DNA from: a virus
Taxonomy: Duplodnaviria; Caudoviricetes
Virus record (IMG/VR): IMGVR_UViG_3300020470_000013
Location: 1 to 53,252 of that record
DNA length: 53,252 nt
Reading direction: 5' to 3' (one strand)
Under the pieces are notes generated by a model. That model was not told the DNA's origin, did not search any database, and was given only the letters and a program-made list of their open reading frames with translations. Shown in pieces: positions 16,438 to 53,137 of the stretch (position 1 is the stretch's first letter; the number at the start of each line of letters is the position of its first letter). Both the position numbers and the translations under genes were made by a program.

Positions 16438-16816
16438 ATTCACCTTCAATAACTGTTTCTTGTTTGGCTGGTAATATAAATATACCATTACTACCTTCAA
16501 CATTTAAATTCAGTTTATCTGTTTTAGATATTCCAACACGGTCTAGAAGCGTCTGTGCAGCCTGTAAACGGATACTAGCCTGTGGTATAGGCTGATCACT
16601 ATCCATAATGTTAACAAGCTTTAAAGCTGCTTTGGGAGCGTTCTGCGCCAGTATCCCTTCTGATATATCTAGTATCTCTTTTTTAAGGCTTTTGACTACA
16701 GATGTATACGATCCCTCCGCATAACCTGCTATTGCAGCTGCTTGCTTTGCATTTCCTCCACATTCTATAAGACTGTCAAGAAAAGTTTTCTGTTTAACTG
16801 TCAATTCTTTTTTCAT
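16421..16816 (-). CDS. terS: Terminase small subunit
   Basis: LTVKQKTFLD...GNAKQAAAIAGY HTH N-terminus; first gene of the late arm, upstream of terL. Confidence 0.75.
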   Translation of the reverse strand: MKKELTVKQKTFLDSLIECGGNAKQAAAIAGYAEGSYTSVVKSLKKEILDISEGILAQNAPKAALKLVNIMDSDQPIPQASIRLQAAQTLLDRVGISKTDKLNLNVEGSNGIFILPAKQETVIEGEYEEAN

Positions 16817-16823
16817 ATTCTAT

Positions 16824-16852
16824 AGTATACACCTGATTTACAATTTTGTCAA
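16824..16852 (-). promoter_or_regulatory. Sigma70-type promoter for the late/packaging arm
   Basis: TTGACA (16852-16847), 17-bp spacer, TATACT (16829-16824). Confidence 0.75.
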
Positions 16853-16860
16853 CAATTATC

Positions 16861-16889
16861 TTGACAAAATTAAAAAAAAAGTGTATAAT
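16861..16889 (+). promoter_or_regulatory. Consensus sigma70 promoter facing the early arm
   Basis: TTGACA (16861-16866), 17-bp spacer, TATAAT (16884-16889). Confidence 0.8.
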
Positions 16890-17040
16890 AGACTATGTAG
16901 ACCCCCCCGGTATATACCTAAATCTATCTCTCCCCCCTTTAAAGACCTTTGAAGCTGCGGCTTAAACTACCTTACACCTATTTTCCGTAAAAATGTATAT
17001 GTATTAGTATATATATAGTGGCGGTGGGGTGGCATCCTGC

Positions 17041-17354
17041 CCTGCCCTTCAAAGGTCTTTAAAATCCTGGAAGGATTTTTAAGACCTAAGAAGGGCAGGA
17101 AATTCCAAATCTTTAAAATCCTTCCAGGATTTTAAAGATCTTCAAAATTGCAGAAGGTTTCAAAGAATTTGAAACCTTCTGCCGGGCTGAAAAATCTTTA
17201 AAGTGCTTTACACTTTAAAGATTTTTAAAAATAGTTAATAGTTAGTAGTTAATTCTTTAAAATCTCCAATATTTTCAGTAATCTGCAACATTGTTAAAAG
17301 CTTGCAATTTCCGCTGGGTCAGATCTTCTAAACCTTTCAGGTTTAGAAGATCTG
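17041..17354. repeat. Cluster of five inverted repeats (hairpins) in non-coding DNA
   Basis: 17041-17099 (imperfect long stem, loop GGA); perfect stems at 17109-17139 (14 bp, TCC), 17150-17182 (15 bp, GAA), 17190-17226 (16 bp, CTTTA), 17320-17354 (16 bp, TTC). Confidence 0.9.
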
Positions 17355-17358
17355 GGGT

Positions 17359-17419
17359 GAAGATTTTCTAATTTCTAAAACCTTCGTTTTGTGAAGGTTT
17401 TAGAAATTAGAAAATCTTC
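17359..17419. repeat. Conserved-apex hairpin 1 (27-bp perfect stem)
   Basis: GAAGATTTTCTAATTTCTAAAACCTTC-GTTTTGT-GAAGGTTTTAGAAATTAGAAAATCTTC. Confidence 0.95.
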
Positions 17420-17441
17420 TTAATCGAAAACAACTTGGAGA

Positions 17442-17822
17442 ATGACTATGGCGAAGCAATTTGATTACAGCACTCTACCATCAGCAAATGTAGCTAACTA
17501 CGACCAAATGAAAGGTGTTGGTAGATATTTCTCAGAACTTAAAGGCAACACCAACGGTTCTAATTCTTTTTGGAGAGATGCTAGAGTTTTTACTGCAATC
17601 ATCTACAAGAACCACAAAACCAAGCCAGTTACTCATGGGCAAATTCAAACTTGGAGGGCAGCCAAAGAAATTCCCGCAAAAATCCTAAAGGATTTTGGAA
17701 AGCCTAAAACTCCCAAGCAGTTAACTGCCAAAGCTAAACCTACCAAGAACTTGAATAATATTACCAAAGATCAACTAATTCAAATGGTAATAGCACTTCA
17801 GGAACAACAATCCAAGAAGTAA
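17442..17822 (+). CDS. First early protein, basic, unknown function
   Basis: 126-aa ORF, GGAG SD (start 17442 or 17448), followed by a terminator. Confidence 0.7.
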   Translation: MTMAKQFDYSTLPSANVANYDQMKGVGRYFSELKGNTNGSNSFWRDARVFTAIIYKNHKTKPVTHGQIQTWRAAKEIPAKILKDFGKPKTPKQLTAKAKPTKNLNNITKDQLIQMVIALQEQQSKK

Positions 17823-17827
17823 ATACT

Positions 17828-17851
17828 AGGGGCGAAAGCCCCTTTTTTTTT
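17828..17851 (+). terminator. Rho-independent terminator
   Basis: AGGGGC-GAAA-GCCCCT followed by a long T tract. Confidence 0.9.
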
Positions 17852-17889
17852 ATTTTCAATTTGTATTATAATTGCATGCGGAGGTAGTT

Positions 17890-18069
17890 ATGTTATCAGC
17901 TGAACAGTACGTAGAACTGTATACGGATCTCGCTAACTTATTATATAGGTCGAGACACAGTAATAAATCCAGGCGTAATTTGACTGAGGACGAGATGCAA
18001 GATTTATTCATCGAATGTTGTAATGATGTTGAAGAAATTTTAGGTGAATATAATTTAACAGGAGACTGA
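17890..18069 (+). CDS. Small acidic early protein
   Basis: GGAGG SD before ATG at 17890 (MLSAEQY...). Confidence 0.65.
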   Translation: MLSAEQYVELYTDLANLLYRSRHSNKSRRNLTEDEMQDLFIECCNDVEEILGEYNLTGD

Positions 18070-18070
18070 T

Positions 18071-18166
18071 ATGAAATATTTACTTAAAGATGAGTTTGCT
18101 TTATTTTTATTTATCATGTGTCTGTTAACTTTTATTAACTTTGCACTAGATAATAATTGGATTTAA
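18071..18166 (+). CDS. 31-aa hydrophobic (membrane) protein
   Basis: AGGAGACTGAT-ATG; MKYLLKDEFALFLFIMCLLTFINFALDNNWI*. Confidence 0.55.
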   Translation: MKYLLKDEFALFLFIMCLLTFINFALDNNWI

Positions 18167-18216
18167 GAAAGTTTTTAAAGACCTTCGGTTTTATGAAGGT
18201 CTTTAAAAACTTTCTT
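18165..18216. repeat. Conserved-apex hairpin 2 (22-bp perfect stem)
   Basis: AAGAAAGTTTTTAAAGACCTTC-GGTTTTAT-GAAGGTCTTTAAAAACTTTCTT. Confidence 0.95.
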
Positions 18217-18232
18217 TGATGAGGAGACTGAT

Positions 18233-18391
18233 ATGTCTGTTGATGAGCAAGTGAATCATTTAAATGAATTAGTTCTGTTGATTGATGAAAAATCAGAACT
18301 TAATACTAAACAAATTCAAGTGCTTTCGGATTTGTTTAAGTTAGTACATGAATCAATTAAACTACTGGAGGTACGACTCAATGAAGTATGA
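18233..18391 (+). CDS. 52-aa coiled-coil early protein
   Basis: AGGAGACTGAT-ATG; MSVDEQVNHLNELVLLIDEKSELNTKQIQVLSDLFKLVHESIKLLEVRLNEV*. Confidence 0.6.
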   Translation: MSVDEQVNHLNELVLLIDEKSELNTKQIQVLSDLFKLVHESIKLLEVRLNEV

Positions 18392-18509
18392 AGACGATTT
18401 CACAATCAATTTAATTGTACTATTAACAGGACTGAACGTAACCTTAATGATCCTGGGTTACTATACTGTCCGAATCATGGACTTGTATTTAGGTTATCAA
18501 ATGTTATAA
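18381..18509 (+). CDS. 42-aa membrane protein
   Basis: GGAGG SD; MKYEDDFTINLIVLLTGLNVTLMILGYYTVRIMDLYLGYQML*. Confidence 0.55.
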   Translation: MKYEDDFTINLIVLLTGLNVTLMILGYYTVRIMDLYLGYQML

Positions 18510-18511
18510 TA

Positions 18512-18564
18512 TTAAAAGCTTTTTAAAACCCTTCGTTTTTTGAAGGGTTTTAAAAAGCTTTTAA
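18512..18564. repeat. Conserved-apex hairpin 3 (23-bp perfect stem)
   Basis: TTAAAAGCTTTTTAAAACCCTTC-GTTTTTT-GAAGGGTTTTAAAAAGCTTTTAA. Confidence 0.95.
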
Positions 18565-18582
18565 ATTACTGGAGGCGATGCC

Positions 18583-18804
18583 ATGTCAGATGTATATGTG
18601 AAAGCACAATGCAATAATTGTAAGCACGTTCATGGTCTTGATGTGAACTTGGAGAAGCTACGTTCATATATTTATGATCGTCTTCCAATTCAAGATGTGT
18701 TCCCTAACTTGACTCCATCCCAAAGAGAACTGATAATGGGCAATGTTAACGGCATGTATCTGTGTGATGTGTGTTGGGACTTTAACTTTGATGATGAGGA
18801 TTAG
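18583..18804 (+). CDS. Small zinc-finger protein
   Basis: CNNC ... IQDVFPNLTPSQRELIM ... CDVCW; GGAGG SD. Confidence 0.7.
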   Translation: MSDVYVKAQCNNCKHVHGLDVNLEKLRSYIYDRLPIQDVFPNLTPSQRELIMGNVNGMYLCDVCWDFNFDDED

Positions 18805-18807
18805 TCT

Positions 18808-19722
18808 ATGAATGTATTAAGTTTATTTGATGGTATGTCATGTGCTCAGTTAGCTTTGCAAAAAGCAGATATACCTGTTACCAAGTACTTTGCAAGCGAA
18901 GTAGACAAATATGCAATCAAAGTAACCCAGGTTAATTTTCCTCACACCATTCAGTTAGGTGATGTCCAACAGGTTACTGCGGATCAGGTTGGTGATATTG
19001 ATCTGTTGGTTGGCGGTTCACCATGCCAAGGATTTAGTTTTGCTGGTAAGCAATTAAACTTTGATGATCCCCGAAGCAAACTATTCTTTGAATATGTGAG
19101 ACTGCTCAAAGAATTGAAACCCAAGTATTACATACTTGAGAATGTTCGTATGGCAAAACAATCTCAAGATGTCATCAGCGAACAGTTAGGTGTTGAACCT
19201 ATCGTTATTAATAGTAATTTAGTCAGCGCACAGAATCGACATAGACTTTACTGGACTAATATATCATTTGATATGCCAAAAGATAAAGGTATTGTTCTTA
19301 CTGATATCATTGAAGATGGTATGGTTGACCGTAACAAATCACATTGTCTTGATGCTAATTACTTCAAAGGTGGTAATCTTAAATCTTATTTTGAGAAGCA
19401 CCGAAGACAATTAGTATTTAAAAGTGGTCGTATTGTTAATCGTAGATTAGATGAAAAAGGTGTACGAAAAGATTATGATCTTAGTATACCAAACCAATCA
19501 CGATTAGAAGTTAGAACGGATGACAAAACTAATTGTCTTACGACAGTTGACAAAGATAGTGTTGTTGTAACCTATCGCAAATTAACGCCAGTAGAATGTG
19601 AAAGATTACAAACTGTTCCAGATAATTACACTAATCATGTAAGTAATTCTCAACGCTACAAAATGTTAGGCAATGGCATGACTGTAGATGTTATGGCAGC
19701 AATCTTGGGAGGGATAAAATAA
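18808..19722 (+). CDS. DNA (cytosine-5)-methyltransferase
   Basis: LSLFDG (motif I), GGSPCQGFS (catalytic PC), ENV, QNRHRLYW, RKLTPVECERLQ, LGNG. Confidence 0.95.
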   Translation: MNVLSLFDGMSCAQLALQKADIPVTKYFASEVDKYAIKVTQVNFPHTIQLGDVQQVTADQVGDIDLLVGGSPCQGFSFAGKQLNFDDPRSKLFFEYVRLLKELKPKYYILENVRMAKQSQDVISEQLGVEPIVINSNLVSAQNRHRLYWTNISFDMPKDKGIVLTDIIEDGMVDRNKSHCLDANYFKGGNLKSYFEKHRRQLVFKSGRIVNRRLDEKGVRKDYDLSIPNQSRLEVRTDDKTNCLTTVDKDSVVVTYRKLTPVECERLQTVPDNYTNHVSNSQRYKMLGNGMTVDVMAAILGGIK

Positions 19723-19946
19723 TGGCATTTAATTATTTGTTTGGTTACGTACCGAATGATGAGGAAGGTGAAGAGTTTATTAAAAACTTGAAAAAGTTTT
19801 TAAATAAAGACGGCTACAAAATGGTATTGAAAGGTCAACACCTTGACCAATCTAAGCTACCACCAGGTAAAAACTGGAGGCATTTTACCAGAGGTCAGCC
19901 ACGAAAGTACAGTAAGTATACTCGCATTTATTTCACTAGGAGATAG
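19722..19946 (+). CDS. Hypothetical protein
   Basis: 74-aa ORF translationally coupled to the MTase. Confidence 0.6.
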   Translation: MAFNYLFGYVPNDEEGEEFIKNLKKFLNKDGYKMVLKGQHLDQSKLPPGKNWRHFTRGQPRKYSKYTRIYFTRR

Positions 19947-19948
19947 CT

Positions 19949-20587
19949 ATGTCGTATGATATTTATTCTGTTGAAGGTACTCAAAAGTTTTCAAAAGAAT
20001 CTAGCGACCATTTATTTTTAGTTTTGTTAATGGTCTTGTTATCCATTCGGCAGCGGTGGAGTTTAATTGGTCATCAATTAAATGATGTAGTTGAGCATGG
20101 AGCTAAGTCCAAATATTTATTCGGTTGGAAAGTTAACGGATATAAATATTTAAATAAAAATAAAGATTACTTATACGATTCTTATTTATCTATAATAGAA
20201 TCTGATTTAAGTGAGGACTTCAAAGCTTTGAAATTGATGCAGTTATTCATGCAGATTCCAGGTTTTAATACGGTCAAAGCAGGGTTTGTTTGTCAGTTAA
20301 CAGCTGGATTAGTCGGATGTATTGATGTCCATAATGAAAGATATTATGGTATTAATACCAAAGATTTTACCATCAAGAAGGGAATAAAATCTGACATCCG
20401 TAAAACCGAAACAACAATTAAGTACATTTCATTTTGCAAGGAAAAAGGAACGGCAGCATTATGGAATACCTGGTGCAATTTGTTAGCTACCAAAGATCAT
20501 AAATGGTTGAATGGCTTTGAAGTTTCTAAAGCACACTACAATTATTTACGTAATTCTTTGGTATTATTTCACAGAAATATTTGCTAA
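19949..20587 (+). CDS. HhH-GPD DNA glycosylase-fold protein (putative)
   Basis: LFMQIPGFNTVKAGF helix-hairpin-helix with Lys, followed by CIDVH (catalytic Asp-like). Confidence 0.55.
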   Translation: MSYDIYSVEGTQKFSKESSDHLFLVLLMVLLSIRQRWSLIGHQLNDVVEHGAKSKYLFGWKVNGYKYLNKNKDYLYDSYLSIIESDLSEDFKALKLMQLFMQIPGFNTVKAGFVCQLTAGLVGCIDVHNERYYGINTKDFTIKKGIKSDIRKTETTIKYISFCKEKGTAALWNTWCNLLATKDHKWLNGFEVSKAHYNYLRNSLVLFHRNIC

Positions 20588-20656
20588 TGAACTGTATAAT
20601 ATCTTTAAAGATTTATAAGGAACATATAAATAATATTTATAATATTGTTTATATAT

Positions 20657-20709
20657 CCTTTAAGGTTTATAAAACCTTTGGTTTATGAAGGTTTTATAAA
20701 CCTTAAAGG
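20657..20709. repeat. Conserved-apex hairpin 4 (22-bp perfect stem plus a T.G pair)
   Basis: CCTTTAAGGTTTATAAAACCTT-TGGTTTATG-AAGGTTTTATAAACCTTAAAGG. Confidence 0.95.
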
Positions 20710-20753
20710 TTTAACGGTGCGGTATCAATCAATCATAACTGGAGAAAATTATT

Positions 20754-20996
20754 ATGGAATATATAATTACAACAGCAGATCGTGATTATGGCAAGAATGG
20801 TGGTCTTTATCCTAAAGATGATCCTGTTGCAGTTAAAAAGAGAGATGATGCCAGGGTTTATTACAATGGTATTGAAGTTTCAAAACTCAATCCATGTTTT
20901 AAATTTTTAAAACCTGGTAGACATAAGGGTCGTTTTGCTGGATTTATGAGCATGGCAGTTAATACTATTGGTTCTTTCACTAAAGGTAGAGGATAA
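20754..20996 (+). CDS. Hypothetical early protein
   Basis: 80-aa ORF with GGAG SD downstream of hairpin 4. Confidence 0.65.
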   Translation: MEYIITTADRDYGKNGGLYPKDDPVAVKKRDDARVYYNGIEVSKLNPCFKFLKPGRHKGRFAGFMSMAVNTIGSFTKGRG

Positions 20997-21001
20997 TTAA
21001 T

Positions 21002-21928
21002 ATGAATAGTATTGTAAATTTTGACAGTGCCCCCGGAACTGGGGGCTTCGGAGCCGCTGATTTTGATACAGTTTCTATACCTACCATGATAGATTTTAAT
21101 GGTAGATCTATAGCAACTGGAAAATATGCCATTGTTAGGACTGATACTAGTGAAGTGTTAGGTCATCATGGATCTCGCCATCAAAAAGTATGTCAGAAAG
21201 AAGCAATTACTACTACTGAGAAAATGTTTTTTGAGAGTGATCTAAAAACTAATACTATGACTAGAGAAATTAGCTGTTCGCATAACGGTTCTAATACTTT
21301 TGCTAGGTATACTTTTCCAGATCATCAGTTTAGATCACCCGATGGTGACGTTAGTACATTAACAGCGTTGCTAACTACTAGTTTTAATTCTACATTTCCT
21401 TTTATGATTGCTTTCGGTGAAAACCTTAGAGCATGTAATAATAATAATATCTGGTTAACTGGTGTGATAACCATGTTTAAAGCCAGGCATACCAAAGGTT
21501 TGAATATATCCGATGGTGCTAAAGCAGTTGGTAATGTTTATGCAGAAGCACAGAAAAATCATGAGTTGTTTTGGGATATGTATTATACTCCTGTTAATTC
21601 GGATGTAGCTTTCGATACGTATGCAGCAGCATCAGGTGTTACCAATCAAGTCAATGAAGTAAAAAGAGAAATTGGTTCTACCGATTGGAGAAGTATAATA
21701 AATAAACTTCCCCGGCAGAATCAAAATCTAAATTATATGGTTCAAAAATCTAAAGATTATGAGAATCGTATGGGTAAGAATCAATGGGCTGTATACAATA
21801 CTCTTACTGATTGGAGTACTCATGCTAATGCAACAACTGAAAAGTCAAAGCAAAACATTGCAGCAATAAAAGTACAACGTGCAGCTAAAGTTCGTGATGC
21901 TGTTAACAACGTGCTATTAGCCGCATGA
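21002..21928 (+). CDS. DUF932-family phage/plasmid protein
   Basis: AIVRTDTSEVLG...Q N-terminal pattern, RACNN, RHT, C-terminal WAVYNTLTDWSTH. Confidence 0.75.
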   Translation: MNSIVNFDSAPGTGGFGAADFDTVSIPTMIDFNGRSIATGKYAIVRTDTSEVLGHHGSRHQKVCQKEAITTTEKMFFESDLKTNTMTREISCSHNGSNTFARYTFPDHQFRSPDGDVSTLTALLTTSFNSTFPFMIAFGENLRACNNNNIWLTGVITMFKARHTKGLNISDGAKAVGNVYAEAQKNHELFWDMYYTPVNSDVAFDTYAAASGVTNQVNEVKREIGSTDWRSIINKLPRQNQNLNYMVQKSKDYENRMGKNQWAVYNTLTDWSTHANATTEKSKQNIAAIKVQRAAKVRDAVNNVLLAA

Positions 21929-22017
21929 TCAACTTAAAAACTGTGATAGCCCTGCTTCTTATTGAAGTAGGGTTACACATCCTGGAAATTATTATTGATG
22001 TTAGTCAGATAATTTAG
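21925..22017 (+). CDS. 30-aa hydrophobic peptide
   Basis: ATGA overlap with DUF932 stop; MINLKTVIALLLIEVGLHILEIIIDVSQII*. Confidence 0.45.
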   Translation: MINLKTVIALLLIEVGLHILEIIIDVSQII

Positions 22018-22027
22018 GAGATAAATA

Positions 22028-22240
22028 ATGGACACTCCAATCGCAACTTTAAAAGAAGCAGTTAAAGAATTAGAGGAAGAAATAAATTCTTTATTAGCTA
22101 TATGGGAAAAGAGAGATCGCTCCAATAAAGATTGTTGGCGCAGAAAATATCTCCCTAAAGTTAAACATTTAGAATCTATACGAATTGCTATTTTAAATAG
22201 AATAAATAATGTTGAAGCTTGGATTAGAGGAGATAAGTAA
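22028..22240 (+). CDS. Hypothetical coiled-coil protein
   Basis: 70 aa, AGGAG SD. Confidence 0.65.
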   Translation: MDTPIATLKEAVKELEEEINSLLAIWEKRDRSNKDCWRRKYLPKVKHLESIRIAILNRINNVEAWIRGDK

Positions 22241-22539
22241 TGACTAGAAAAAAAGTAACAGAAACTGATAGCTTTAAGTACAGAGTTAACTTAGGGCATG
22301 AAGGTCTTACTCTTTTAAAGAAAGAGTACCAACTTTTAGATTGGGTTAATACACTTCTTGGTGTAGAGCGTGGTTGTTGGTGGGATAAAGATTACGATGC
22401 ATTAGATTCTCTTCTTAATTTTTTAAGAAAAGAATATAATATGGTTCCATCAACCTGTTCTGATGGTAGTATCAATCGCTATACTTTAACTTTTCCGGGA
22501 GATCCAGATGAATATTGTGACGCAGAAGACGATGAATGA
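22240..22539 (+). CDS. Hypothetical protein
   Basis: 99 aa, GAGGAG SD, coupled start. Confidence 0.65.
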   Translation: MTRKKVTETDSFKYRVNLGHEGLTLLKKEYQLLDWVNTLLGVERGCWWDKDYDALDSLLNFLRKEYNMVPSTCSDGSINRYTLTFPGDPDEYCDAEDDE

Positions 22540-22684
22540 AGTTATAGAAGATATGGTAGCATACAATATTGACTATCAACCTGATCCAGATTATACTGGA
22601 CTACATGCTGATCTTAGTCGTTTAGGTTTAGATTCTTTTGAAGTTGAATCTATTATGCGGAGAGTTGCTGATGCTGAGATTTAG
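22532..22684 (+). CDS. 50-aa acidic protein (LGLDS motif)
   Basis: MNEVIEDMVAYNIDYQPDPDYTGLHADLSRLGLDSFEVESIMRRVADAEI*; fills the gap between neighbours with overlapping start/stop. Confidence 0.55.
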   Translation: MNEVIEDMVAYNIDYQPDPDYTGLHADLSRLGLDSFEVESIMRRVADAEI

Positions 22685-22847
22685 TTTTGTTTTATTTCTA
22701 GTGGGGTGCAGCAATGCCCCATTAGAAATTCAAACAGATATTCAAGGTACTTTGTGGTGTGAAACCAGAGGTGGTATCAGGGAATGTCATTATATAAATG
22801 ATAACCAGGTACAAGAATCTATTGAACAAATAATAAGAGGATATTAG
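22671..22847 (+). CDS. Small lipoprotein
   Basis: Start probably 22671, MLRFSFVLFLVG/C lipobox; GGAG SD. Confidence 0.55.
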   Translation: MLRFSFVLFLVGCSNAPLEIQTDIQGTLWCETRGGIRECHYINDNQVQESIEQIIRGY

Positions 22848-22848
22848 T

Positions 22849-23031
22849 ATGAAACATACAGCTAAAAGTATGGTTATGAAACCAGAGTTTCGATCAAGAG
22901 TTGTTAAAGATAAAACCAAGTATGATCGAAAGAAGTCTTTTAATGATGCTGATATACCTTTAACTGGAGACGATGAGCCAGTTGATCGTGACCTTATATC
23001 AGATAAATATCAGAACGGATATTGGGAGTAG
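22849..23031 (+). CDS. Small basic protein, ArfA-like N-terminus
   Basis: PEFRSRVVKDKTKYDRKK resembles the ArfA P-x-F-R-x-R-V...Y-x-R-K pattern. Confidence 0.5.
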   Translation: MKHTAKSMVMKPEFRSRVVKDKTKYDRKKSFNDADIPLTGDDEPVDRDLISDKYQNGYWE

Positions 23032-23034
23032 CCT

Positions 23035-23130
23035 ATGAAATTCCATAATAAACTTGCATTGGGAATTATAATTGTAGCTGGTTGCGTATGGTATATTTCT
23101 TTACTAGATTATAGTAGTAAAGTTTTATGA
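23035..23130 (+). CDS. 31-aa membrane peptide
   Basis: GGGAG SD; MKFHNKLALGIIIVAGCVWYISLLDYSSKVL*. Confidence 0.5.
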   Translation: MKFHNKLALGIIIVAGCVWYISLLDYSSKVL

Positions 23131-23537
23131 GTATTGATAATGCTAAACCAGAAGAATGGGATAATTTAAAAGCTAAAGGGCCAGATAAACCAGAGGAATG
23201 TTTAATGAATAAACCAGTTACGAAAGCAGAAGATATAACAAACAGTACATTTAAAACTATAACAGGTAGTTTATATCATCCAGCTGATAGTATGATGGAC
23301 AAACTAATGTTCCCGGAAGAAGATCCTGTTAATCATCCCCCTCATTATAACAAAGGTGGGCTAGAAGCTATTGATTACATTGAACAACAACTTGAAGATG
23401 GATTTGCAGATTACCTTGAGGGAAACGTACTAAAGTATATGCATCGTTGGAGGTATAAAAATGGTATTGAAGATCTTAAAAAAGCTAAATGGTATTTGGA
23501 TAAACTTGTGGAAACAAACTCATTTAATTACGGTTAG
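23127..23537 (+). CDS. DUF3310 (T7 gp1.7-like nucleotide kinase family) protein
   Basis: DPVNHPPHY..GGLEAID...GNVLKY..R...KNGIEDLKKAKWYL. Confidence 0.85.
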   Translation: MSIDNAKPEEWDNLKAKGPDKPEECLMNKPVTKAEDITNSTFKTITGSLYHPADSMMDKLMFPEEDPVNHPPHYNKGGLEAIDYIEQQLEDGFADYLEGNVLKYMHRWRYKNGIEDLKKAKWYLDKLVETNSFNYG

Positions 23538-23976
23538 TTTTTTATTATTTTGTCCGACTATATTATTGGCACAAGATACTGAAGAATATTGTTTAGCTGA
23601 AACAGTTTATTTTGAAGCACGAAACCAGGAATTATTAGGACAAATTGCTGTCGGTCTAGTAGCAATGAATCGTGTTAAAAGTAATTCGTTTCCTGATACT
23701 TTATGTGATGTAACAAGACAAGCAAAACGTGACAGTTCTGGCCGCATTATAAAATATAAATGCCAGTTCAGTTATTATTGTGATGGACTATTAGAACATG
23801 TGAATGAAGAAGAAGCCTGGACAACAGCTAAAATAGTTTCTAAAGTAGTGATAGAACAAAGCCATAAAGATATTACAGGCGGTGCTTTATATTATCATTC
23901 CACAAAAGTAAGTCCTTATTGGATGTCAGCTTTTCAAGAAACCGTACAAATTGGAGATCATATATTTTATAAATGA
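23461..23976 (+). CDS. SleB-like cell-wall hydrolase (lytic transglycosylase, Hydrolase_2); true start may be downstream
   Basis: CLAETVYFEARN catalytic motif, NRV..FP.T.C.V, CQFSYYCDG, GALYYH, IGDHIFY; N-terminal hydrophobic signal. Confidence 0.85.
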   Translation: MVLKILKKLNGIWINLWKQTHLITVSFLLFCPTILLAQDTEEYCLAETVYFEARNQELLGQIAVGLVAMNRVKSNSFPDTLCDVTRQAKRDSSGRIIKYKCQFSYYCDGLLEHVNEEEAWTTAKIVSKVVIEQSHKDITGGALYYHSTKVSPYWMSAFQETVQIGDHIFYK

Positions 23977-24416
23977 AAAAATTATTAAACAAACTTATAA
24001 ATGAAAAGCCAATACTTCAATCACCTTTACATGGGTTGAATCATTATCATAATGTATATGAAGCTGGCTTAGATATTGGCGCACATTATAAAGCGGATCT
24101 CAAAGTTATTAAATATTTTGCTTACTTACATGATTGTTGTAGGCTTAATGAAGATACAGATCCTCAACATGGTAAACGTGCGGCTCAATGGATAAGACAT
24201 AACCTGGAATTTATAAAATTAAATTCTTCTCAAATTGAATTGCTTTTAAGAGCATGTGAAATGCATACATATGCTAAACCATACTATGAAGACACATATG
24301 ATATTACAATTCAATGTTGTTTCGATGCAGATCGTAGTGATATAGGTAGAGTAGGTATGAATGTAGATCCAAAGTATTTATTTACAGATTATGCAAAGGA
24401 AAATTATGTCTATTAA
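23973..24416 (+). CDS. HD-domain phosphohydrolase
   Basis: HGLNH..NV, YLHDCCR, HG.RAA, DADR.D..R motifs. Confidence 0.85.
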   Translation: MKKLLNKLINEKPILQSPLHGLNHYHNVYEAGLDIGAHYKADLKVIKYFAYLHDCCRLNEDTDPQHGKRAAQWIRHNLEFIKLNSSQIELLLRACEMHTYAKPYYEDTYDITIQCCFDADRSDIGRVGMNVDPKYLFTDYAKENYVY

Positions 24417-24738
24417 AATAATAAAATCTCCCAAAGGAAAAAGTTATACAACAGAGGAGATTAAAAATAGTAATCGTATCACTAAAAGTGCAACACCAAA
24501 AGGTACATTAGATTGGTATTTAAAATGGATAGGTAGTGTAATATTTATTCTAGCTGTAACAGTACGAAGTACTGAGATACCAGAATTAAGAATAGTAGAT
24601 TTAATTTTAAGTTTTATAGCTACTATACTATGGGCAGTTGTAGGTTTTCTCTGGAAAGATCGTGCTGTTATGTTGATTAATGGTGTAGCATGTGTTATAC
24701 TATTGACAGGTATTTTAAAATATTTATTTATAGAATAA
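24391..24738 (+). CDS. Small membrane protein (3 TM)
   Basis: DWYLKWIGS... WKDRAVMLIN; three hydrophobic segments. Confidence 0.7.
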   Translation: MQRKIMSIKIIKSPKGKSYTTEEIKNSNRITKSATPKGTLDWYLKWIGSVIFILAVTVRSTEIPELRIVDLILSFIATILWAVVGFLWKDRAVMLINGVACVILLTGILKYLFIE

Positions 24739-24749
24739 GGATATAATTT

Positions 24750-25001
24750 ATGTCAATTATTTATGGTGATTTTGGCAATAAGAAAAATACTTTAAAAGAA
24801 AAAGTAAATACAGCTTTAAAACAAGTACCAGGTTCGGATGTTGAAGATAGTAAGCAAACTTTTCTTTTGATTGTAGATACAGGATCAGAATTTAAAATAT
24901 TATCTGATGTAGAACTACCTGAGTTTAATGTTATGTTAGACATATGTAAATTTACAGTCTTGCAAGGTGCATATAATTTTTTAGGTGAGTATAAAGAATG
25001 A
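24750..25001 (+). CDS. Hypothetical protein
   Basis: 83 aa, AAGGA SD, co-oriented. Confidence 0.6.
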   Translation: MSIIYGDFGNKKNTLKEKVNTALKQVPGSDVEDSKQTFLLIVDTGSEFKILSDVELPEFNVMLDICKFTVLQGAYNFLGEYKE

Positions 25002-25225
25002 ACATGTTACATCCAGAATTTTCTAGTAATGAAGAAATGGTAGAAGATTATGTTTGCCAGGCATTTGTTATGGGAATGGGAACAACAACACCAAACAAAA
25101 ATGTGTTGACAAATTTCATTAGTTGGGTTATTATCCAACATAAGAAAGACGGTGAACAAATCACCGAACAATACGTTAGGGACATGATCCCACAATATAT
25201 TAACTTTTTATTTGCGAAAGCATAG
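24998..25225 (+). CDS. Hypothetical protein
   Basis: 75 aa, coupled to the previous gene. Confidence 0.6.
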   Translation: MNMLHPEFSSNEEMVEDYVCQAFVMGMGTTTPNKNVLTNFISWVIIQHKKDGEQITEQYVRDMIPQYINFLFAKA

Positions 25226-25236
25226 GAGAAATAATT

Positions 25237-25662
25237 ATGGCAGTAGTTGAAGGATTTGCTTATTGGCCTTTTGTAACAACACCTAACACTAAGTATACAC
25301 CAGAGTATAGTGTTAACTTAGTGGTAACACCAGAGGTTGCAGATAGTTTTAGGAATCGTGGCTTCTCTATTAAAGAGATGGATGAAGGCCCAGCTTTAAT
25401 GATAAAGCGTAAGGTAAATGGCCCTGAAGGTATGATAAGACAAGCACCTAAACTGTTAGACCGTTCTAAAAATCCTATTGATGTATCTGTAGGTAACGGA
25501 TCTAAAGTTAAAGTTCAATATAAAGAATGGGAAAGCACATGGAATGGTCAGCTATATAAAGGGCTTGATTTCCAGGCGATGCAAGTTATTGATTTAGTTG
25601 AGTACGGTTCGCCTGATGGTGCTGAGTTCGATATTGAAGATGATGATGGAGATGAATTGTAA
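25237..25662 (+). CDS. Single-stranded DNA-binding protein (T7 gp2.5-like OB fold)
   Basis: VGNGSKVKV, AMQVIDLVEY, acidic C-terminal tail; upstream of primase. Confidence 0.8.
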   Translation: MAVVEGFAYWPFVTTPNTKYTPEYSVNLVVTPEVADSFRNRGFSIKEMDEGPALMIKRKVNGPEGMIRQAPKLLDRSKNPIDVSVGNGSKVKVQYKEWESTWNGQLYKGLDFQAMQVIDLVEYGSPDGAEFDIEDDDGDEL

Positions 25663-25874
25663 TGAGTATGACTTATACTTATGAAGATTCTAAGTATGAT
25701 GTTAATAAGTTAAGTGTAGAGGGACAGCAGGTATTTAAAATACTTGCTGTTGCTCAACGAAAAGCAGATGAACTTAACATTGATACTACTCTAGCACAAG
25801 CAGCAGTAGTCGCAATGCATACAAAGATGCAAGAATATTTAAGTGATAAGGCTCTAATAAAAGAGGATGAGTAA
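25662..25874 (+). CDS. Hypothetical protein
   Basis: 70 aa, coupled between SSB and primase. Confidence 0.65.
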   Translation: MSMTYTYEDSKYDVNKLSVEGQQVFKILAVAQRKADELNIDTTLAQAAVVAMHTKMQEYLSDKALIKEDE

Positions 25875-27526
25875 TGTCATTTGTAAAACAAAACCAACCC
25901 TGCCCTTCTTGTGGGGGCAGCGATCCTGTTGCAATCAACGACAATGGATCAGCAAAATGTTTTAGTTGTGGTACATTTTTTAAAAGTTATTCTGAAGCTT
26001 CTGGTGGAAACGTGTCTGATTTCTCTACCTACCAGAGAAATATAAATAATAATAATTCTACCGAAGCTTCCTTTAATGCACTAACGGATCGTGGAATATC
26101 GATAGAGACAGCAAAAAAATATGGAGTAAAATCAGTGTTGTCTTCAGATGGTTCTATTTATGAACACCATTATCCGATGTATATAAATAACGAAGTTGTT
26201 GCTACCAAGATAAGAAGACCTAATAAAGAATTCTATTGGCGTGGATCAAGTAAAGGAACTAGCTTATTCGGTCAACAACTTTGTCAAGATGGCGGTAAAT
26301 ACATTACAATAACAGAAGGAGAGTGCGATGCTATGGCTGCCTATCAACTGATGGGTAGCCAATGGCCTGTAGTCTCAGTTAAGAACGGTGCTGAAGGTGC
26401 AGTTCGTGATGTAAAAGATAACTTAGAATTCCTGGAATCATATGATACTATCGTTATTAATTTTGATAATGATAAAGTTGGAAGGGAAGCAGCTAAGAAA
26501 ATTGCACGTTTATTAAAACCTGCGAAGGCTAAGATCTTACAATTGCCGGAGCAGTTTAAAGATGCCAATGAGATGTTAAAGCTTGGACAACATAAAGCAT
26601 ATGTGTCGGCATGGTGGGCATCAAAAATTTATACGCCTTCTGGGGTATTAAATGTAACAGATCAACGTGACAACTATAAGAAACGTGAGCGTAAAGAATC
26701 TGTACCTTATCCTTGGGAGGGTTTAAATTCTAAATTAGAAGGTTTACGTCAAGGTGAGCTAGTAACCTTAACAGGTGGCACTGGCCTTGGTAAGTCTAGT
26801 GTTACACGAGAGTTAGAACATTGGCTTGTTCGTAATACAAGAGACAATATAGGTATCATAGCTTTAGAAGAAGATTGGCGTAGAACAATAGATGGCATAC
26901 TTTCTATTGAAGCCAATGCTAAATTACATATTGATAGTATACGTGCTGAATATGATGCTGAACAATTAGATGAGATGTTTAATATTCTATATGACGGTGA
27001 AAATAAAAATCGTGTATGGGTTCATGCTCATTTTGGAATGAATGATTTAGATAGTATCTTTAGTAAGTTACGTTTTATGATTGTAGGTTGTGGTTGTAAA
27101 TGGATAGTTGTAGATCATTTACATATGTTAGTGTCTTGTTCAGTTGAAGGTGATGAGCGTAGAACTATAGATAATATTATGCACAGACTTAGAACATTAG
27201 TTGAAGAGACAGGTGCAGGATTAATCTTAGTATCACATCTACGTAGAATAGATGGTAATCGTGGGCATGAGAATGGTATAGCTACTGGTCTTTCTCATTT
27301 GCGTGGTAGTCAATCCATAGCCCAACTGTCTGATTGCGTAATAAGTTTAGAACGTAATCAACAATCTGATGACCCTATTGAATCTAGCACTACAAAAGTT
27401 CGTGTATTGAAATCAAGATATACAGGTGATGTTGGATTAGCAACAAGCTTATATTATGATAATAATACAGGACGTTTAGAAGAAGTTGACTTAGGTGATG
27501 TTAATGAAATCCAGGTGGAACTATGA
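25874..27526 (+). CDS. T7 gp4-like DNA primase-helicase
   Basis: CPSC..CFSC zinc finger, ITEGECDA/FDND TOPRIM, GGTGLGKS Walker A, VVDHL, LRGSQSIAQLSD, KSRYTG. Confidence 0.95.
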   Translation: MSFVKQNQPCPSCGGSDPVAINDNGSAKCFSCGTFFKSYSEASGGNVSDFSTYQRNINNNNSTEASFNALTDRGISIETAKKYGVKSVLSSDGSIYEHHYPMYINNEVVATKIRRPNKEFYWRGSSKGTSLFGQQLCQDGGKYITITEGECDAMAAYQLMGSQWPVVSVKNGAEGAVRDVKDNLEFLESYDTIVINFDNDKVGREAAKKIARLLKPAKAKILQLPEQFKDANEMLKLGQHKAYVSAWWASKIYTPSGVLNVTDQRDNYKKRERKESVPYPWEGLNSKLEGLRQGELVTLTGGTGLGKSSVTRELEHWLVRNTRDNIGIIALEEDWRRTIDGILSIEANAKLHIDSIRAEYDAEQLDEMFNILYDGENKNRVWVHAHFGMNDLDSIFSKLRFMIVGCGCKWIVVDHLHMLVSCSVEGDERRTIDNIMHRLRTLVEETGAGLILVSHLRRIDGNRGHENGIATGLSHLRGSQSIAQLSDCVISLERNQQSDDPIESSTTKVRVLKSRYTGDVGLATSLYYDNNTGRLEEVDLGDVNEIQVEL

Positions 27527-29277
27527 AAACATTAGTATTTGATATAGAAACAGATGGTATTGATCCTAATAATATATGGTGTATTTCAACTGTAAATGCT
27601 GATACTGATGAAGCCATATCTTATGGCCCTGATAGATTAGTTGATGGTGTACAGTATTTAAAATCAGCAGATAAATTAGTTGGTCATAATATAATTGGAT
27701 ATGATATTCCAGTTATAAAAAAATTAATGGATGTAGATCTATCTAAACATGCTAAGATTGTAGATACGTTAGTTCTTTCTAGATTATTTAATCCAGTACG
27801 TGAAGGTGGACATAGCTTAGAAAGCTGGGGTTATCGTGTCGGCCATAGAAAAATAGAGTTTGAGGAGTTTGCTACATTTACTCCAGAAATGTTAAAGTAT
27901 TGTGAGAATGATACATTATTAAATCAGAAAGTATTTAATACATTAAAGATTGAATCCTCTGGTTTTAGTTCTCGTGCTGTTGGTTTAGAACATACTGCGT
28001 CTAAGATTATGACTGATCAAAGATCACATGGTTTCTTATTAGATGTTGAGAAAGCTACAATGTTAGTTGCTGAATTATCTGAACGACTATATGAAGTTGA
28101 AACTTTAGTACATGAAACTTTTTTACCTAGAAAAGTTAAGACAGTTTTAAAGGCTACGTTTACTAAGTCTGGTGCATTATCTAAGATGGCAGCTATACAA
28201 GGTAGTATAAAGAAAAGTCGTTTAACTCAAGAAGAGTATGATGATATAGCAGTTAAGCGTGTTATTACACGTATAAATGAGGAGCCTTTTAATTTAGGTT
28301 CACGTAAACAAATAGGTGAATACCTAATTGATTTTGGATGGGAACCAAAGAAGTTTACTCCAACTGGTCAACCAATAGTTGACGAAGGTACGTTAAGTAA
28401 AATAAAAGATATACCAGAAGCAAAACTTATTGCAGAGTATTTATTATTACAAAAGCGTATTGCTCAACTAACTTCCTGGATTAAGGAAGTACATGATGAT
28501 AATAGAGTACGTGGTTTTGTTAATCCAAACGGCACTATTACTGGACGCATGACACACAATAGTCCTAACATGGCTCAATGTCCTAGTGTAAGATCACCTT
28601 ACGGTAAGGAGTGTCGAGAATGTTGGACAGTTCCCGAAGGTTATAAACTAGTGGGTATAGATGCTAGTGGTTTAGAACTACGAATGCTTGCACACTATAT
28701 GGATGATGAGGCATACACAAATGAAATATTGCATGGAGACATACACACAACTAATCAAAAACTTGCAGGGCTTGAATCAAGAGATCAGAGTAAAACATTC
28801 ATCTATGCACTCATCTACGGAGCCGGGAATGCGAAACTTGGTCAAGTGGTTGGAGGAAACAAAGAAGATGGCGAAAGACTTAGAAGACGTTTCCTTGATA
28901 ATCTCCCATCATTTAAAAATCTTAGAGACAGAGTTGCAAGAGCTTCAACAAAAGGATATGTCAAAGGATTAGATGGTCGTAAGTTATACATACGTTCTGA
29001 ACATGCAGCACTTAATACTTTACTTCAAGGTGCTGGTGCTATAGTAATGAAAGAAGCCATGAGTATCCTTTATAATAAAATAACGGAAAATAAATTAGAT
29101 GCACATTTTGTTTGCAACGTACATGATGAGTGGCAAATCGAAGTTCGTGAATGTGATGCAGATGCAGTTGGTATTGCAGGTATTGAATCAATTAAAGAAG
29201 CTGGGCTTACATTAGAATTACGATGCCCACTTACAGGAGAATATAATGTCGGGTCAAATTGGGCTGAAACTCACTAA
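27523..29277 (+). CDS. polA: Family A DNA polymerase (T7 gp5-like) with 3'-5' exonuclease
   Basis: FDIETDG, GHNIIGYD, DASGLELR (motif A), KTFIYALIYG (motif B), NVHDE (motif C). Confidence 0.95.
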   Translation: MKTLVFDIETDGIDPNNIWCISTVNADTDEAISYGPDRLVDGVQYLKSADKLVGHNIIGYDIPVIKKLMDVDLSKHAKIVDTLVLSRLFNPVREGGHSLESWGYRVGHRKIEFEEFATFTPEMLKYCENDTLLNQKVFNTLKIESSGFSSRAVGLEHTASKIMTDQRSHGFLLDVEKATMLVAELSERLYEVETLVHETFLPRKVKTVLKATFTKSGALSKMAAIQGSIKKSRLTQEEYDDIAVKRVITRINEEPFNLGSRKQIGEYLIDFGWEPKKFTPTGQPIVDEGTLSKIKDIPEAKLIAEYLLLQKRIAQLTSWIKEVHDDNRVRGFVNPNGTITGRMTHNSPNMAQCPSVRSPYGKECRECWTVPEGYKLVGIDASGLELRMLAHYMDDEAYTNEILHGDIHTTNQKLAGLESRDQSKTFIYALIYGAGNAKLGQVVGGNKEDGERLRRRFLDNLPSFKNLRDRVARASTKGYVKGLDGRKLYIRSEHAALNTLLQGAGAIVMKEAMSILYNKITENKLDAHFVCNVHDEWQIEVRECDADAVGIAGIESIKEAGLTLELRCPLTGEYNVGSNWAETH

Positions 29278-29587
29278 AGAAATGTCAGATAGTAGGAAAG
29301 GAGATTTTGCAGAATATTATGCAGTTACTTGGTTATGGGATCAAGGCTATGATGTCTTTAAAAATTGTGGTTGTGATGGTATAATTGATTTAATTGCTTG
29401 GGATAGGCCAAACGATAATTTTGTTCTTATAGATGTTAAGACTATGAGTATGGATAAGAGATGGCCTGGTAGAACTTATTCAAAAGGAACAACTAGAACT
29501 CCCGAACAAAAAGAAAAAGGAATTGTTCATTTACAATTTAATCCACAAACTAGAGATTTAAAATTTACGGAGCATAGAAACAAATGA
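29246..29587 (+). CDS. PD-(D/E)XK endonuclease (Hjc/resolvase-like)
   Basis: KGDFAE...GYDVF...IDLIA...IDVKT. Confidence 0.75.
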   Translation: MSGQIGLKLTKEMSDSRKGDFAEYYAVTWLWDQGYDVFKNCGCDGIIDLIAWDRPNDNFVLIDVKTMSMDKRWPGRTYSKGTTRTPEQKEKGIVHLQFNPQTRDLKFTEHRNK

Positions 29588-30441
29588 CTTGTCTTAATAC
29601 ACTAGTAGATGATATTAATAAAAGTTTAGAAGATTTATCAGATGGTAAACCTTTAAACATAACTGAAAAAGATTTAGATCTTACTTTATCACGTATAAAA
29701 ACAAGTATACTTGAATGGTCAAATCCTTCTGAACGTGATACAAATTTTAGTTTACGTATGTCTAACATTGGTAAACCTGCACGACAATTATGGTTTGAAA
29801 AAAATAAACCAATGAAAAATGCTAGACATAGTGCAGCAACCCAGGTTAAATTTCTTTATGGACATATACTTGAAGAGATTGTGTTAATGCTTGTACGTGC
29901 AGCAGGTCATACAGTAACTGATGAACAAAAGGAAGTAGAGTTAAATGGAATCAAAGGACACATGGATTGCAAAATTGATGGGGAAGTTGTTGATATTAAG
30001 ACTGCATCTAAGTATGCATTTAGTAAATTTAAAAATGGAAACCTACATGATGATGATCCATTTGGGTATATACCGCAGTTGGCTGCGTATGAAAAAGCCG
30101 AAGACACACGTAAAGGTGGATTCTTAGTTATAAATAAAGAAGGCGGTGATATTTGTTTACATAAGCCTGATGATTTATCTAAGCCTAATATAAATAATTT
30201 ACTATCTACTGTAACAGAAGCACTAGATTCAACTGAGATACCTAATCTTTGTTATCGTCCAGTAGCTGAAGGTAAGAAAGGTAATATGAAAATACATAGA
30301 AACTGTACTTATTGTCCTTATAAGTATGAATGTTTTCAAAACTATAATAATGGTAGAGGTTTACGAACATTTAAATACGCAAACCGTTTAGAATATTTAA
30401 CTAAAGTTGTAGTTGAACCTAGAGTTGAAGAGATAGTATAA
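29584..30441 (+). CDS. Cas4/RecB-like PD-(D/E)XK exonuclease
   Basis: GHILEE, GHMD..IDG.VVDIKTAS, Y..QL..Y, C-terminal CTYCPYKYEC. Confidence 0.8.
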   Translation: MTCLNTLVDDINKSLEDLSDGKPLNITEKDLDLTLSRIKTSILEWSNPSERDTNFSLRMSNIGKPARQLWFEKNKPMKNARHSAATQVKFLYGHILEEIVLMLVRAAGHTVTDEQKEVELNGIKGHMDCKIDGEVVDIKTASKYAFSKFKNGNLHDDDPFGYIPQLAAYEKAEDTRKGGFLVINKEGGDICLHKPDDLSKPNINNLLSTVTEALDSTEIPNLCYRPVAEGKKGNMKIHRNCTYCPYKYECFQNYNNGRGLRTFKYANRLEYLTKVVVEPRVEEIV

Positions 30442-33967: not shown

Positions 33968-33979
33968 AAAGGAGTTACT

Positions 33980-53134: not shown

Positions 53135-53137
53135 GTG

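Follow-up and report, generated by a model that had tools for sequence, protein, structure and literature searches.

In bacteriophage T7, the early RNase III site R0.3 sits just before the first early gene. REP elements in malEFG and the hairpins of the Rhodobacter puf operon are shorter, imperfect host elements that could set differential stability of mRNA segments, and recognition of the coat-protein, TAR, or boxB type involves a bulge plus a loop read by a protein, the boxB stem being 5 bp long. At the level of single-stranded DNA (ssDNA), the hairpins of N4, mitochondrial OriL, and G4/phiX priming have stems of 5–11 bp; those of N4 promoters have 5–7 bp with 3-nt loops, and the OriL loop is T-rich. 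The T7 site R1.1 contains a 4/5-nt internal loop, and its single cut leaves a protective 3′ hairpin (PMC6121014). PeSLs of T4-like phages are described as a strong sigma-70 promoter combined with a G/C-tract stem-loop that terminates transcription (PMC2839356, PMC4122927). Here, we analyze long hairpins in the early region of a tailed phage, IMG/VR record IMGVR_UViG_3300020470_000013, a complete virus record of 53,252 bp that was considered at its full length and is further called the window. Four hairpins, H1–H4, are found between genes in one orientation, their pairing is conserved by compensation, and they are not canonical terminators; tentatively, we interpret them as intercistronic double-stranded RNA (dsRNA) elements that would be cut by host RNase III on an early transcript made by the host.

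The first-pass annotation of this DNA had listed four long perfect hairpins with stems of 27, 22, 23, and 22 bp, and our analysis recovers all of them, with the same coordinates and loops (Table 1). The helices are uninterrupted, with no internal loop or bulge, and comprise 22–27 perfect pairs, or 24–28 if the G·U closure and the flanks are counted. Folded as RNA, H1, H2, H3, and H4 have minimum free energies (MFE) of −37.6, −30.6, −31.3, and −30.7 kcal/mol (z-scores −10.3, −10.7, −9.2, and −7.7, respectively), with 0 of 200 shuffles as good for any of them; folded as DNA, they range from −27.3 to −21.0 kcal/mol (z −12 to −9). Hairpins with at least 14 Watson–Crick pairs and at most two mismatches number 11 in the whole window, compared to 1, 0, 0, 0, and 1 in five block shuffles, and ten of these 11 sit at positions 16837–20711. 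H1–H4 share the apex AAAACC(C)TT(C)-loop-(G)AAGG(G)TTTT; their T-rich loops are all on the plus (sense) strand, and all four can be closed by a G·U pair on the sense strand only.

The positions of H1–H4 relative to genes also agree with the earlier description, which placed them 16–44 nt before ATG codons led by Shine–Dalgarno (SD) sequences. The end of H1 is 22 (or 28) nt from the ATG, that of H2 is 16 nt from the ATG at 18233, that of H3 is 18 nt from the ATG at 18583, and that of H4 is 44 nt from the ATG at 20754, each start codon having an SD of the GGAG type. H2 overlaps the stop codon of a 31-aa open reading frame (ORF), and H3 begins 2 nt past a stop codon. The early arm has seven gaps of at least 30 nt, three of which are occupied by H2, H3, and H4; the five late-arm gaps of this size that were examined contain no long hairpin. 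As had been claimed, U-tails are missing: no T-run follows any of the four hairpins, and hence a canonical Rho-independent terminator was rejected as their identity, the true terminator at 17828 serving as the contrast.

The hairpins are not confined to the first ~3.4 kb of the early arm, where alone they had been noticed, since five more (A1–A5) are present in the leader and shorter ones (H5, H6) at 21942 and 22694. H5 is a probable fifth member of the series. Its plus strand folds at −23.5 kcal/mol (z −6.8) and its minus strand at −13.9 kcal/mol (z −2.65), and it is kept in the relatives L006 and L005 with additional wobble pairs; by these features it is clearly of the RNA type, apparently the sole clear case among the hairpins of the window. 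H6 is possibly a further member.

Table 1. Hairpins, promoters, and associated features of the early region of the window.
Feature	Coordinates	Strand	Description
Divergent late-arm promoter	16852-16824	-	11/12 sigma-70 match; overlaps early promoter (pair spans 16824-16890)
Early promoter	16861-16889	+	TTGACA-17-TATAAT; 12/12 sigma-70 consensus positions
Untranslated early leader	16897-17441	+	~545 nt; start predicted from promoter
Leader hairpin A1	17041-17099	+	25/28 pairs; 3-nt loop
Leader hairpin A2	17109-17139	+	14 bp, perfect; 3-nt loop
Leader hairpin A3	17150-17182	+	15 bp, perfect; loop GAA
Leader hairpin A4	17190-17226	+	16 bp, perfect; loop CTTTA
Leader hairpin A5	17320-17354	+	16 bp, perfect; loop TTC
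Hairpin H1	17359-17419	+	arms 17359-17385/17393-17419; 27 bp, 100% paired; 7-nt loop GTTTTGT; directly before first early gene
First early gene	17442-17822	+	four-helix domain, KPKA-rich linker, short C-terminal helix; family conserved across clade
Intrinsic terminator	17828-17855	+	GGGGC-GAAA-GCCCC and T9 run; after first gene
Hairpin H2	18165-18216	+	arms 18165-18186/18195-18216; 22 bp, 100% paired; 8-nt loop GGTTTTAT
Hairpin H3	18512-18564	+	arms 18512-18534/18542-18564; 23 bp, 100% paired; 7-nt loop GTTTTTT
Hairpin H4	20657-20709	+	arms 20657-20678/20688-20709; 22 bp, 100% paired; 9-nt loop TGGTTTATG
Hairpin H5 (probable series member)	21942-21979	+	16 pairs; apex CUUC-UUAUU-GAAG; two G.U pairs possible on + strand only
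Hairpin H6 (possible series member)	22694-22729	+	13-bp stem with one G.T; GGGG/CCCC apex; 10-nt loop; starts 10 nt past stop codon

The same layout, with hairpins at matching places, is seen in the close relatives of the phage (L005/L015, L016 with L006, and L224–L226; proteins 70–88% identical) and in the distant relative L017, whose first early protein is 27% identical. Orthologues of H3 are present in L005, L016, and L224, those of H4 in L005 and L006. Natural variants of H1 replace T–A by C–G at positions 17369/17409 and A–T by T–A at 17371/17407, both fully compensated. H1 of L224 differs from that of the window by two compensated changes and no single change (first protein 85% identical), and H2 and H3 are unchanged there, with 83 substitutions over the aligned 1.7 kb. 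A strain of the L224 type is also found in contigs of four DNA runs (the 22 sequencing runs listed include no RNA run); the list of contig variants comprises the 40 best supported of 260 differences, and rare uncompensated variants are possible. For the leader hairpins, comparison with L005 yields six compensated pairs in A1, three in A3, one in A4, and two in A5, i.e., 12 compensated pairs vs three mismatches over A1–A5, and a G–C pair of A1 is replaced by A–T in L224. Compensation counts relative to L005 omit H2, which L005 lacks, and the H1 rows of this comparison are unreliable due to a register shift; the fold of the H1 orthologue alignment, with four usable rows, gives double changes in six of 14 predicted pairs and is not relied on. 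The comparisons support the view that the hairpins form a constrained, strand-oriented family, whose structure is kept through compensated changes.

In the whole clade, two classes of hairpins are distinguished: leader hairpins with 3–5-nt loops, and large-loop hairpins with 7–13-nt loops and stems of up to 32 bp. The first large-loop hairpin lies directly before the first gene, and the remaining ones are between early genes; of the 34 distinct large-loop hairpins, 32 lie between genes, with no fixed spacing to the gene on either side. At least 20 Watson–Crick pairs, or approximately two helical turns, are present in 17 of the 34, and at least five T in the 8 nt downstream in only one (mean 1.8 T in 8 nt). 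In all three complete genomes (the window, and G001 and G004 from two other sub-lineages), the hairpins of at least 14 bp are all in the leader or early arm, except one in the window. The module of G001 consists of a promoter, a 700-nt hairpin leader, a 30-bp hairpin, a small basic gene, and a strong terminator. Several relatives have short hairpins only, or none. A separate observation concerns G001 (L219 10660–10745), where the 5′ arm of the second long hairpin shares nucleotides with a canonical terminator, GGGAGC...GCTCCC with a T-run; the two structures are thus mutually exclusive.

The loop word TCTTACGA keeps to one strand in G001 (3/3), G002 (3/3), G003 (2/2), and G004 (2/2), and occurs once on each strand in G005; the orientation of the loops is apparently fixed relative to the early genes. 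Judging from the sequences, the apex design is lineage-specific. In L062, L082, and L084, six of six copies can adopt a fold in which a TTAC tetraloop caps the 5-bp helix RGTC/GACY, with a 3–4-nt bulge on the 5′ side; the apex of L026 and L029 has a GNA loop on the 4-bp helix TCAC/GTGA, with a C bulge, and that of L020 and L088 combines a tandem G·A with a 2-bp helix and a triloop. On the sense strand, the bulge is without exception on the 5′ side. The loops of the window itself are plain U-rich, with no bulge, and the genomes L005, L022, L029, and L088 each mix loop types.

According to the RNase III reading, which we favor with reservation, host RNA polymerase would start at the consensus promoter at 16861–16889 and produce a polycistronic RNA with the 545-nt structured leader followed by the early genes. 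Each perfect A/U-rich helix of 22–28 bp with a G/C apex clamp would fold between two cistrons, and the double-strand-specific RNase III of the host would cut it, separating the cistrons and setting the stability and translation of the messages on both sides. Since the stems are perfect, both strands should be cut, and hence the elements may shorten early expression, limiting the early messages and not protecting them. Transcription of the hairpins is likely because of the promoter and the gene order; their action at the RNA level and the identity of the enzyme as RNase III, we infer. Perfect dsRNA of 22–28 bp is a substrate of bacterial RNase III. The position inside the predicted transcribed operon, the fixed orientation, and H5 favor the RNA level, and these features, together with the constrained pairing, helix length, and missing T-tails, are counted in support of RNase III processing. 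In the alpha-proteobacterium S. meliloti, RNase III requires a longer duplex than its E. coli counterpart does (PMC6121014).

Several observations weigh against RNase III processing. The cultured relative HTVC115P has no long hairpins, hence, these are dispensable for the group, and half of the large-loop hairpins of the clade have fewer than 20 gapless pairs. In the long stems, no sense-strand RNA signature is seen, and G·U pairs are not enriched: 31 isolated internal mismatches are seen among 1420 Watson–Crick pairs of 70 hairpins, G·T accounting for three and A·C for nine; in large-loop hairpins, the plus strand folds better in 18, the minus strand in 15, and neither in three (n = 36, p = 0.73); in leader hairpins, the minus strand folds better in 31 of 47 (p = 0.016). 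Further, RNase III cutting involves no reading of the loop, so that the lineage-specific apex designs are left unexplained, and since H1–H4 have no internal loop, the stabilizing logic of T7 does not carry over.

The missing strand signature fits either of two conditions: DNA pairing matters, or template-switch correction keeps the repeats perfect. Template-switch correction of quasi-palindromes is a mutational process that maintains perfect inverted repeats whatever their function, and it would also yield double "compensated" changes, including the A–T to T–A transversion seen in H1. The scarcity of wobble pairs in constrained stems makes these hairpins a test case for RNA-level selection vs palindrome-correcting mutation.

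The former of the two conditions corresponds to a DNA-level role, to which we assign a low probability: a sense-strand ssDNA hairpin or a cruciform near a transcription-primed origin in the leader. The functions proposed within it, each as doubtful, are priming or loading sites of the mitochondrial OriL or G4/phiX kind, R-loop stabilizers, and entry or packaging signals. The stems are nearly pure Watson–Crick, and neither strand folds more stably than the other, which is what a role for DNA pairing would predict; DNA folding is very stable (−21 to −27 kcal/mol, z −9 to −12). The phage has a T7-like replisome, and its leader lies behind the strongest promoter and contains a clade-wide AT-rich block followed by G-runs, an arrangement reminiscent of promoter-plus-G-run origins. 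Moreover, loops of the C-GNA-G type, which is very stable in DNA, are among those seen. On the other hand, template-switch correction would give perfect stems and double changes whatever the function; H5, of the same series, is clearly RNA-type; there is no reason for priming sites to lie solely between early genes, 16–44 nt before start codons; and the junction-cutting endonuclease homologue encoded by the phage (phrog_945) would probably make extruded cruciforms hazardous.

The leader itself is strongly structured, with an RNA MFE of −207.4 compared to −116.2 ± 6.1 in shuffles (z −15). At positions 16990–17045 it contains a block AAAATGTATA...TAGTATATATATAG, followed by G-runs (GGGGGTGGGGG-like) and CCTGCC, in every relative read, including L005 (1455–1500), L017 (3650–3700), L219 (9240–9300), L099 (HTVC115P), and the leader of L048. 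With its AT-rich stretch and G-run downstream of a strong promoter, this block is a candidate for an origin primed by transcription or for a genome-end element. Right after the −10 box, at 16884–16910 (approximately +8 to +18 of the predicted transcript), a word conserved throughout the clade reads (T)AGCCCNCCGG or GACCCCCCCGG; in 45 of 84 loci examined (e.g., L005 1350, L017 3493, L082, and L099 = HTVC115P), AGCCCNCCGG follows the −10 box, and HTVC115P keeps the word although it has no hairpins. The word may mark where the early RNA begins, or it may act at the DNA level, for example as a genome end or packaging signal. At 17012–17126, assembly is interrupted at A1 in all four DNA runs or gives alternative short contigs there; the A1 loop is GGA in the window and ACC in the variant, and this stretch is a hot spot of variation between strains.

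Copies of the word TCTTTAAA number 25 in the window compared to 7.4 ± 2.6 expected (0 of 100 shuffles reach 25); 11 of the 25 copies are within 16938–20611 (16938–17261, 18174–18207, and 20602–20611), mostly as inverted pairs in hairpin stems. This word resembles the boxA core, and a boxA/Nus role was considered; it was rejected, as the word lies on both strands as parts of palindromes and boxA-like words are not enriched. The boxA-like word GCTCTTTAACAA with up to three mismatches has 83 matches in the window vs 85.0 ± 9.2 expected, and the proposal of antitermination sites is not supported.

The apex designs bear on a further possibility with a similarly low probability, namely, that the hairpins act as RNA elements with no involvement of RNase III: as barriers to 3′ exonucleases, as insulators of cistrons, or as operators whose apex is recognized by a phage or host protein particular to the lineage. 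The evidence of position, orientation, and covariation is the same as for RNase III processing, and the apexes are structured and lineage-specific, with the bulge always on the 5′ side of the sense strand. However, a perfect stem of 20–32 bp far exceeds the needs of a barrier or an operator, loops are mixed within single genomes (L005, L022, L029, and L088), and the loops of the window are plain and unbulged. No RNA-binding domain was found in the ten early ORFs scanned.

The basic first early protein (17442), which had been suggested as the partner of the hairpins, is not supported in this role. Its family is characterized by an N-terminal four-helix domain with a conserved THG(E/Q) motif and a KPKA-rich linker similar to histone H1 (protein alignment A4), and by a C-terminal coiled coil in most members. 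The AlphaFold2 model has a pLDDT of 77.6, a fold search of PDB gives a best match at E 1.7, that is, no match, and no PHROG, Pfam, or Atlas match was obtained for the protein; a metagenome scan with it returned five loci only, too few for statistics. The family is present in L048, L074, and L075, all of which lack hairpins of at least 11 bp. The H1 apexes of the window and L005 differ, though their first early proteins are 80% identical, and L022 shares the H1 loop of L005, although its first early protein is only 26% identical. Given this lack of co-variation with the apex type, the first early protein seems a poor candidate for the loop reader. The arrangement of this gene followed by a terminator is also found in L005, L017, and G001.

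The first-pass annotation had combined these elements into a dedicated structure-plus-loop recognition system. The constrained, oriented hairpin family holds, and among the options listed there RNase III-type stems fit best, whereas N4-like promoters, antitermination, and the first early protein as partner are not supported. A stronger variant, in which the stems serve as a scaffold presenting a lineage-specific apex to a dedicated reader and, together with the leader array and the AT-block/G-run, constitute an undescribed control system, appears unlikely; it would operate either via a phage protein marking early RNA or via OriL-like ssDNA hairpins on the displaced sense strand of a transcription-primed origin used by the T7-like replisome.

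The conserved apex was likewise confirmed in part: it is shared by H1–H4, but its core alone is not distinctive, being common in viral terminators. At least 118 stretches of viral contigs contain the core pattern AAACCCTTC-N5-10-GAAGGGTTT; of the 119 matches inspected, 115 have stems of only 9–11 bp, mostly followed by T-runs, and are thus ordinary terminators of unrelated phages, and among the matches listed there were no new family members beyond the known relatives. By sequence, the bare apex of the window hairpins is indistinguishable from this common terminator core. Such a generic apex would suit terminators or attenuators that have no U-tract and grade or time early expression, a role that we consider very unlikely. 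Sub-stems of H1 score as terminator-like in a terminator scan, and efficient termination by PeSL stem-loops in reporters is reported (PMC2839356). Against this, a T-rich tail follows only the single large-loop hairpin noted above; textbook terminators are used elsewhere by the phage and its relatives; H1 is downstream of the early promoter and precedes the first gene, so that strong termination there would shut this gene off; and a 5–6-bp clamp followed by four U would probably be weak alone.

A search of Rfam for a known family that would explain the hairpins, as proposed earlier, returned no matches at the gathering threshold in the whole window, so none accounts for them. At E ≤ 1, the region 16800–21200 has 28 matches, nearly all to models of microRNA precursors, with a few small RNA, leader, or antisense models; the best sub-threshold score is 40.4 bits compared to the cut-off of 100.

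Gain and loss of hairpins were also observed. H2 constitutes a clean 57-nt presence/absence difference relative to L016, between a stop codon and the next SD, and L005 has neither H2 nor the ORF following it. In L005, two copies identical over ~52 nt flank a 1-kb segment. The H3–H4 interval of the window holds a methyltransferase gene and one ORF that are missing from L005 and L016. Near 20982, one variant strain (run X1) has a 26-nt palindromic insertion at the end of an 80-aa ORF, before the gene at 21002, which suggests ongoing gain of palindromes in this population. These differences would agree with recombination linkers or self-propagating palindromes that move early gene cassettes and have little direct role in expression, and PeSLs are crossover points in T4-like phages (PMC2839356). 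This explanation is nevertheless improbable. Orthologous hairpins are kept at the same sites, with pairing maintained, in relatives whose proteins are 27–80% identical; copies within a genome, with the exception of L005, share the apex only, which is too little homology for efficient exchange; and other cassette differences, the methyltransferase block and the gene after the terminator, have no hairpin at their borders. Finally, no promoter fits between a hairpin and the ATG, hence, the composite PeSL architecture is missing. Identity with PeSLs in the strict sense was rejected on the same grounds, the interval being 16–44 nt including the SD, and promoter-like matches not exceeding chance (56 in 16500–26000 vs 45.6 ± 6.6 expected).

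The methyltransferase is encoded in an accessory cassette at 18808–19946, comprising a cytosine-5 DNA methyltransferase (phrog_116, E 3e-77) and the following 74-aa ORF. Where the cassette is missing (L005, L016), the flanking genes abut.

The 12/12 sigma-70 promoter preceding the early arm at 16861–16889 bears on the earlier proposal of N4-like hairpin promoters, here meant for an unrecognized virion RNA polymerase, which is now highly improbable. The clustering of the hairpins at the start of the early arm is consistent with it, as are large virion ORFs of 1370, 1154, 539, and 496 aa that match no recognized family. However, stems of 22–27 bp with 7–9-nt loops are unlike those of N4 and far longer, the hairpins end only 16–44 nt before start codons, one of them overlapping a stop codon, and no RNA polymerase was found. 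The claim that the phage has no RNA polymerase is itself supported only as far as the PHROG and Pfam scans of the large ORFs reach, in which no RNA polymerase family was matched; the six-frame PF00940 scan gave no match either, but its control genomes were also silent.

As for the phage as a whole, one minus-strand gene runs off both ends of the record (1–494 and 53122–53252), and hence the record is a circular permutation; no terminal repeat is reported for it. The long minus-strand arm encodes terminase, portal, tail, and internal virion proteins. The plus-strand arm, 17442–34171, starts with small ORFs with no assigned function; the genes after them form a replication set of the T7 type, namely, primase-helicase, family A DNA polymerase, gp2.5-like single-stranded DNA-binding protein, endonuclease, Cas4-like exonuclease, and ribonucleotide reductase. 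Inside the primase-helicase gene, at 26319–26376, there is a strong imperfect G/C-rich hairpin (−33.5 kcal/mol), which, H1–H4 aside, is the sole plus-strand structure of energy comparable to theirs. The GC content of the window is 32–40%, and GC skew follows gene orientation. Among named phages, the closest are those of Pelagibacter, HTVC115P, HTVC103P, and HTVC104P (large terminase 63–67% identical, primase-helicase 43–46%), followed by Puniceispirillum phage HMO-2011 and roseophages CRP-1, CRP-2, and CRP-3, hence, the window is assigned to the HMO-2011-type podovirus group. The closest cultured relatives infect alpha-proteobacteria SAR11 and SAR116, and a terminase at least 68% identical is encoded in more than 599 IMG/VR stretches. 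A megablast search of the hairpin region against the collection of named phages gave no match.

Among marine viruses, the HMO-2011-type phages form one of the most abundant groups, with over 200 complete genomes published, and papers on them treat genes only. Our literature search found no paper describing hairpins in this group, and for stem-loops of pelagiphages it turned up only an unrelated Pseudomonas phage study; in the main survey of the group (PMC9038755), none of the terms hairpin, stem-loop, palindrome, inverted repeat, promoter, or terminal repeat occurs. The consensus promoter, conserved leader, hairpin array, and intercistronic hairpins constitute the first map of non-coding control for the group. 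If the hairpins are RNase III sites, they would show how early expression is arranged in a T7-like phage that has no RNA polymerase of its own and infects streamlined alpha-proteobacterial hosts, with perfect long helices used where T7 has looped ones. To call them an undescribed system was an overstatement, since families of intercistronic hairpins in phage early operons are a known device. New, in the sense of not having been described, is the form of the device, i.e., perfect long A/U helices, lineage-specific apex modules, and a hairpin-array leader, in an abundant group of marine phages.

Compared with the known systems, the hairpins resemble PeSLs of T4-like phages in being intergenic stem-loops repeated among small early ORFs and, in cases such as H2, coinciding with gain and loss of sequence between close relatives, but differ in the lack of an attached promoter, in the long A/T-rich stems, and in showing no sign of termination. 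Similar to REP in malEFG and the Rhodobacter puf hairpins, they are stable intercistronic stem-loops that could set the stability of segments; here, the phage stems are much longer and perfect, and have lineage-specific apex designs. In lambda, whose nut sites consist of boxA plus boxB, N is the first early gene and is followed by terminators. The order of elements is alike here, namely, a promoter, a structured leader with a hairpin, a small basic first gene, and a strong terminator, whereas here there are four or more sites per operon and the first protein does not co-vary with the apex. With the ssDNA hairpin signals (N4, OriL, G4/phiX), they share strand specificity, a loop that would matter, and T7-like replication enzymes, and with mitochondrial OriL also the T-rich loops; the stems of the window are longer, the sites are between genes, and no matching polymerase was found.

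The closest likeness in arrangement and proposed role is with the T7 early RNase III sites (R0.3, R0.5, R1, R1.1, and R1.3). In both cases, hairpins of about two helical turns lie between podovirus early cistrons, copies within a genome are related, the replication module is of the T7 type, and the RNA is made by the host polymerase, as would be predicted here; moreover, H1, like R0.3, sits just before the first early gene. In the T7 sites, the helix is interrupted by an asymmetric internal loop and includes non-canonical pairs, and one cut is made, leaving a 3′ hairpin. The phage hairpins have perfect, unbranched stems, which are longer than those of T7, reach 32 bp in relatives, and are A/U-rich except for the G/C apex; they have neither sequence similarity to the T7 sites nor an Rfam match. 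Since the defining internal loop is missing, the hairpins would work like the T7 sites but stand outside that family.

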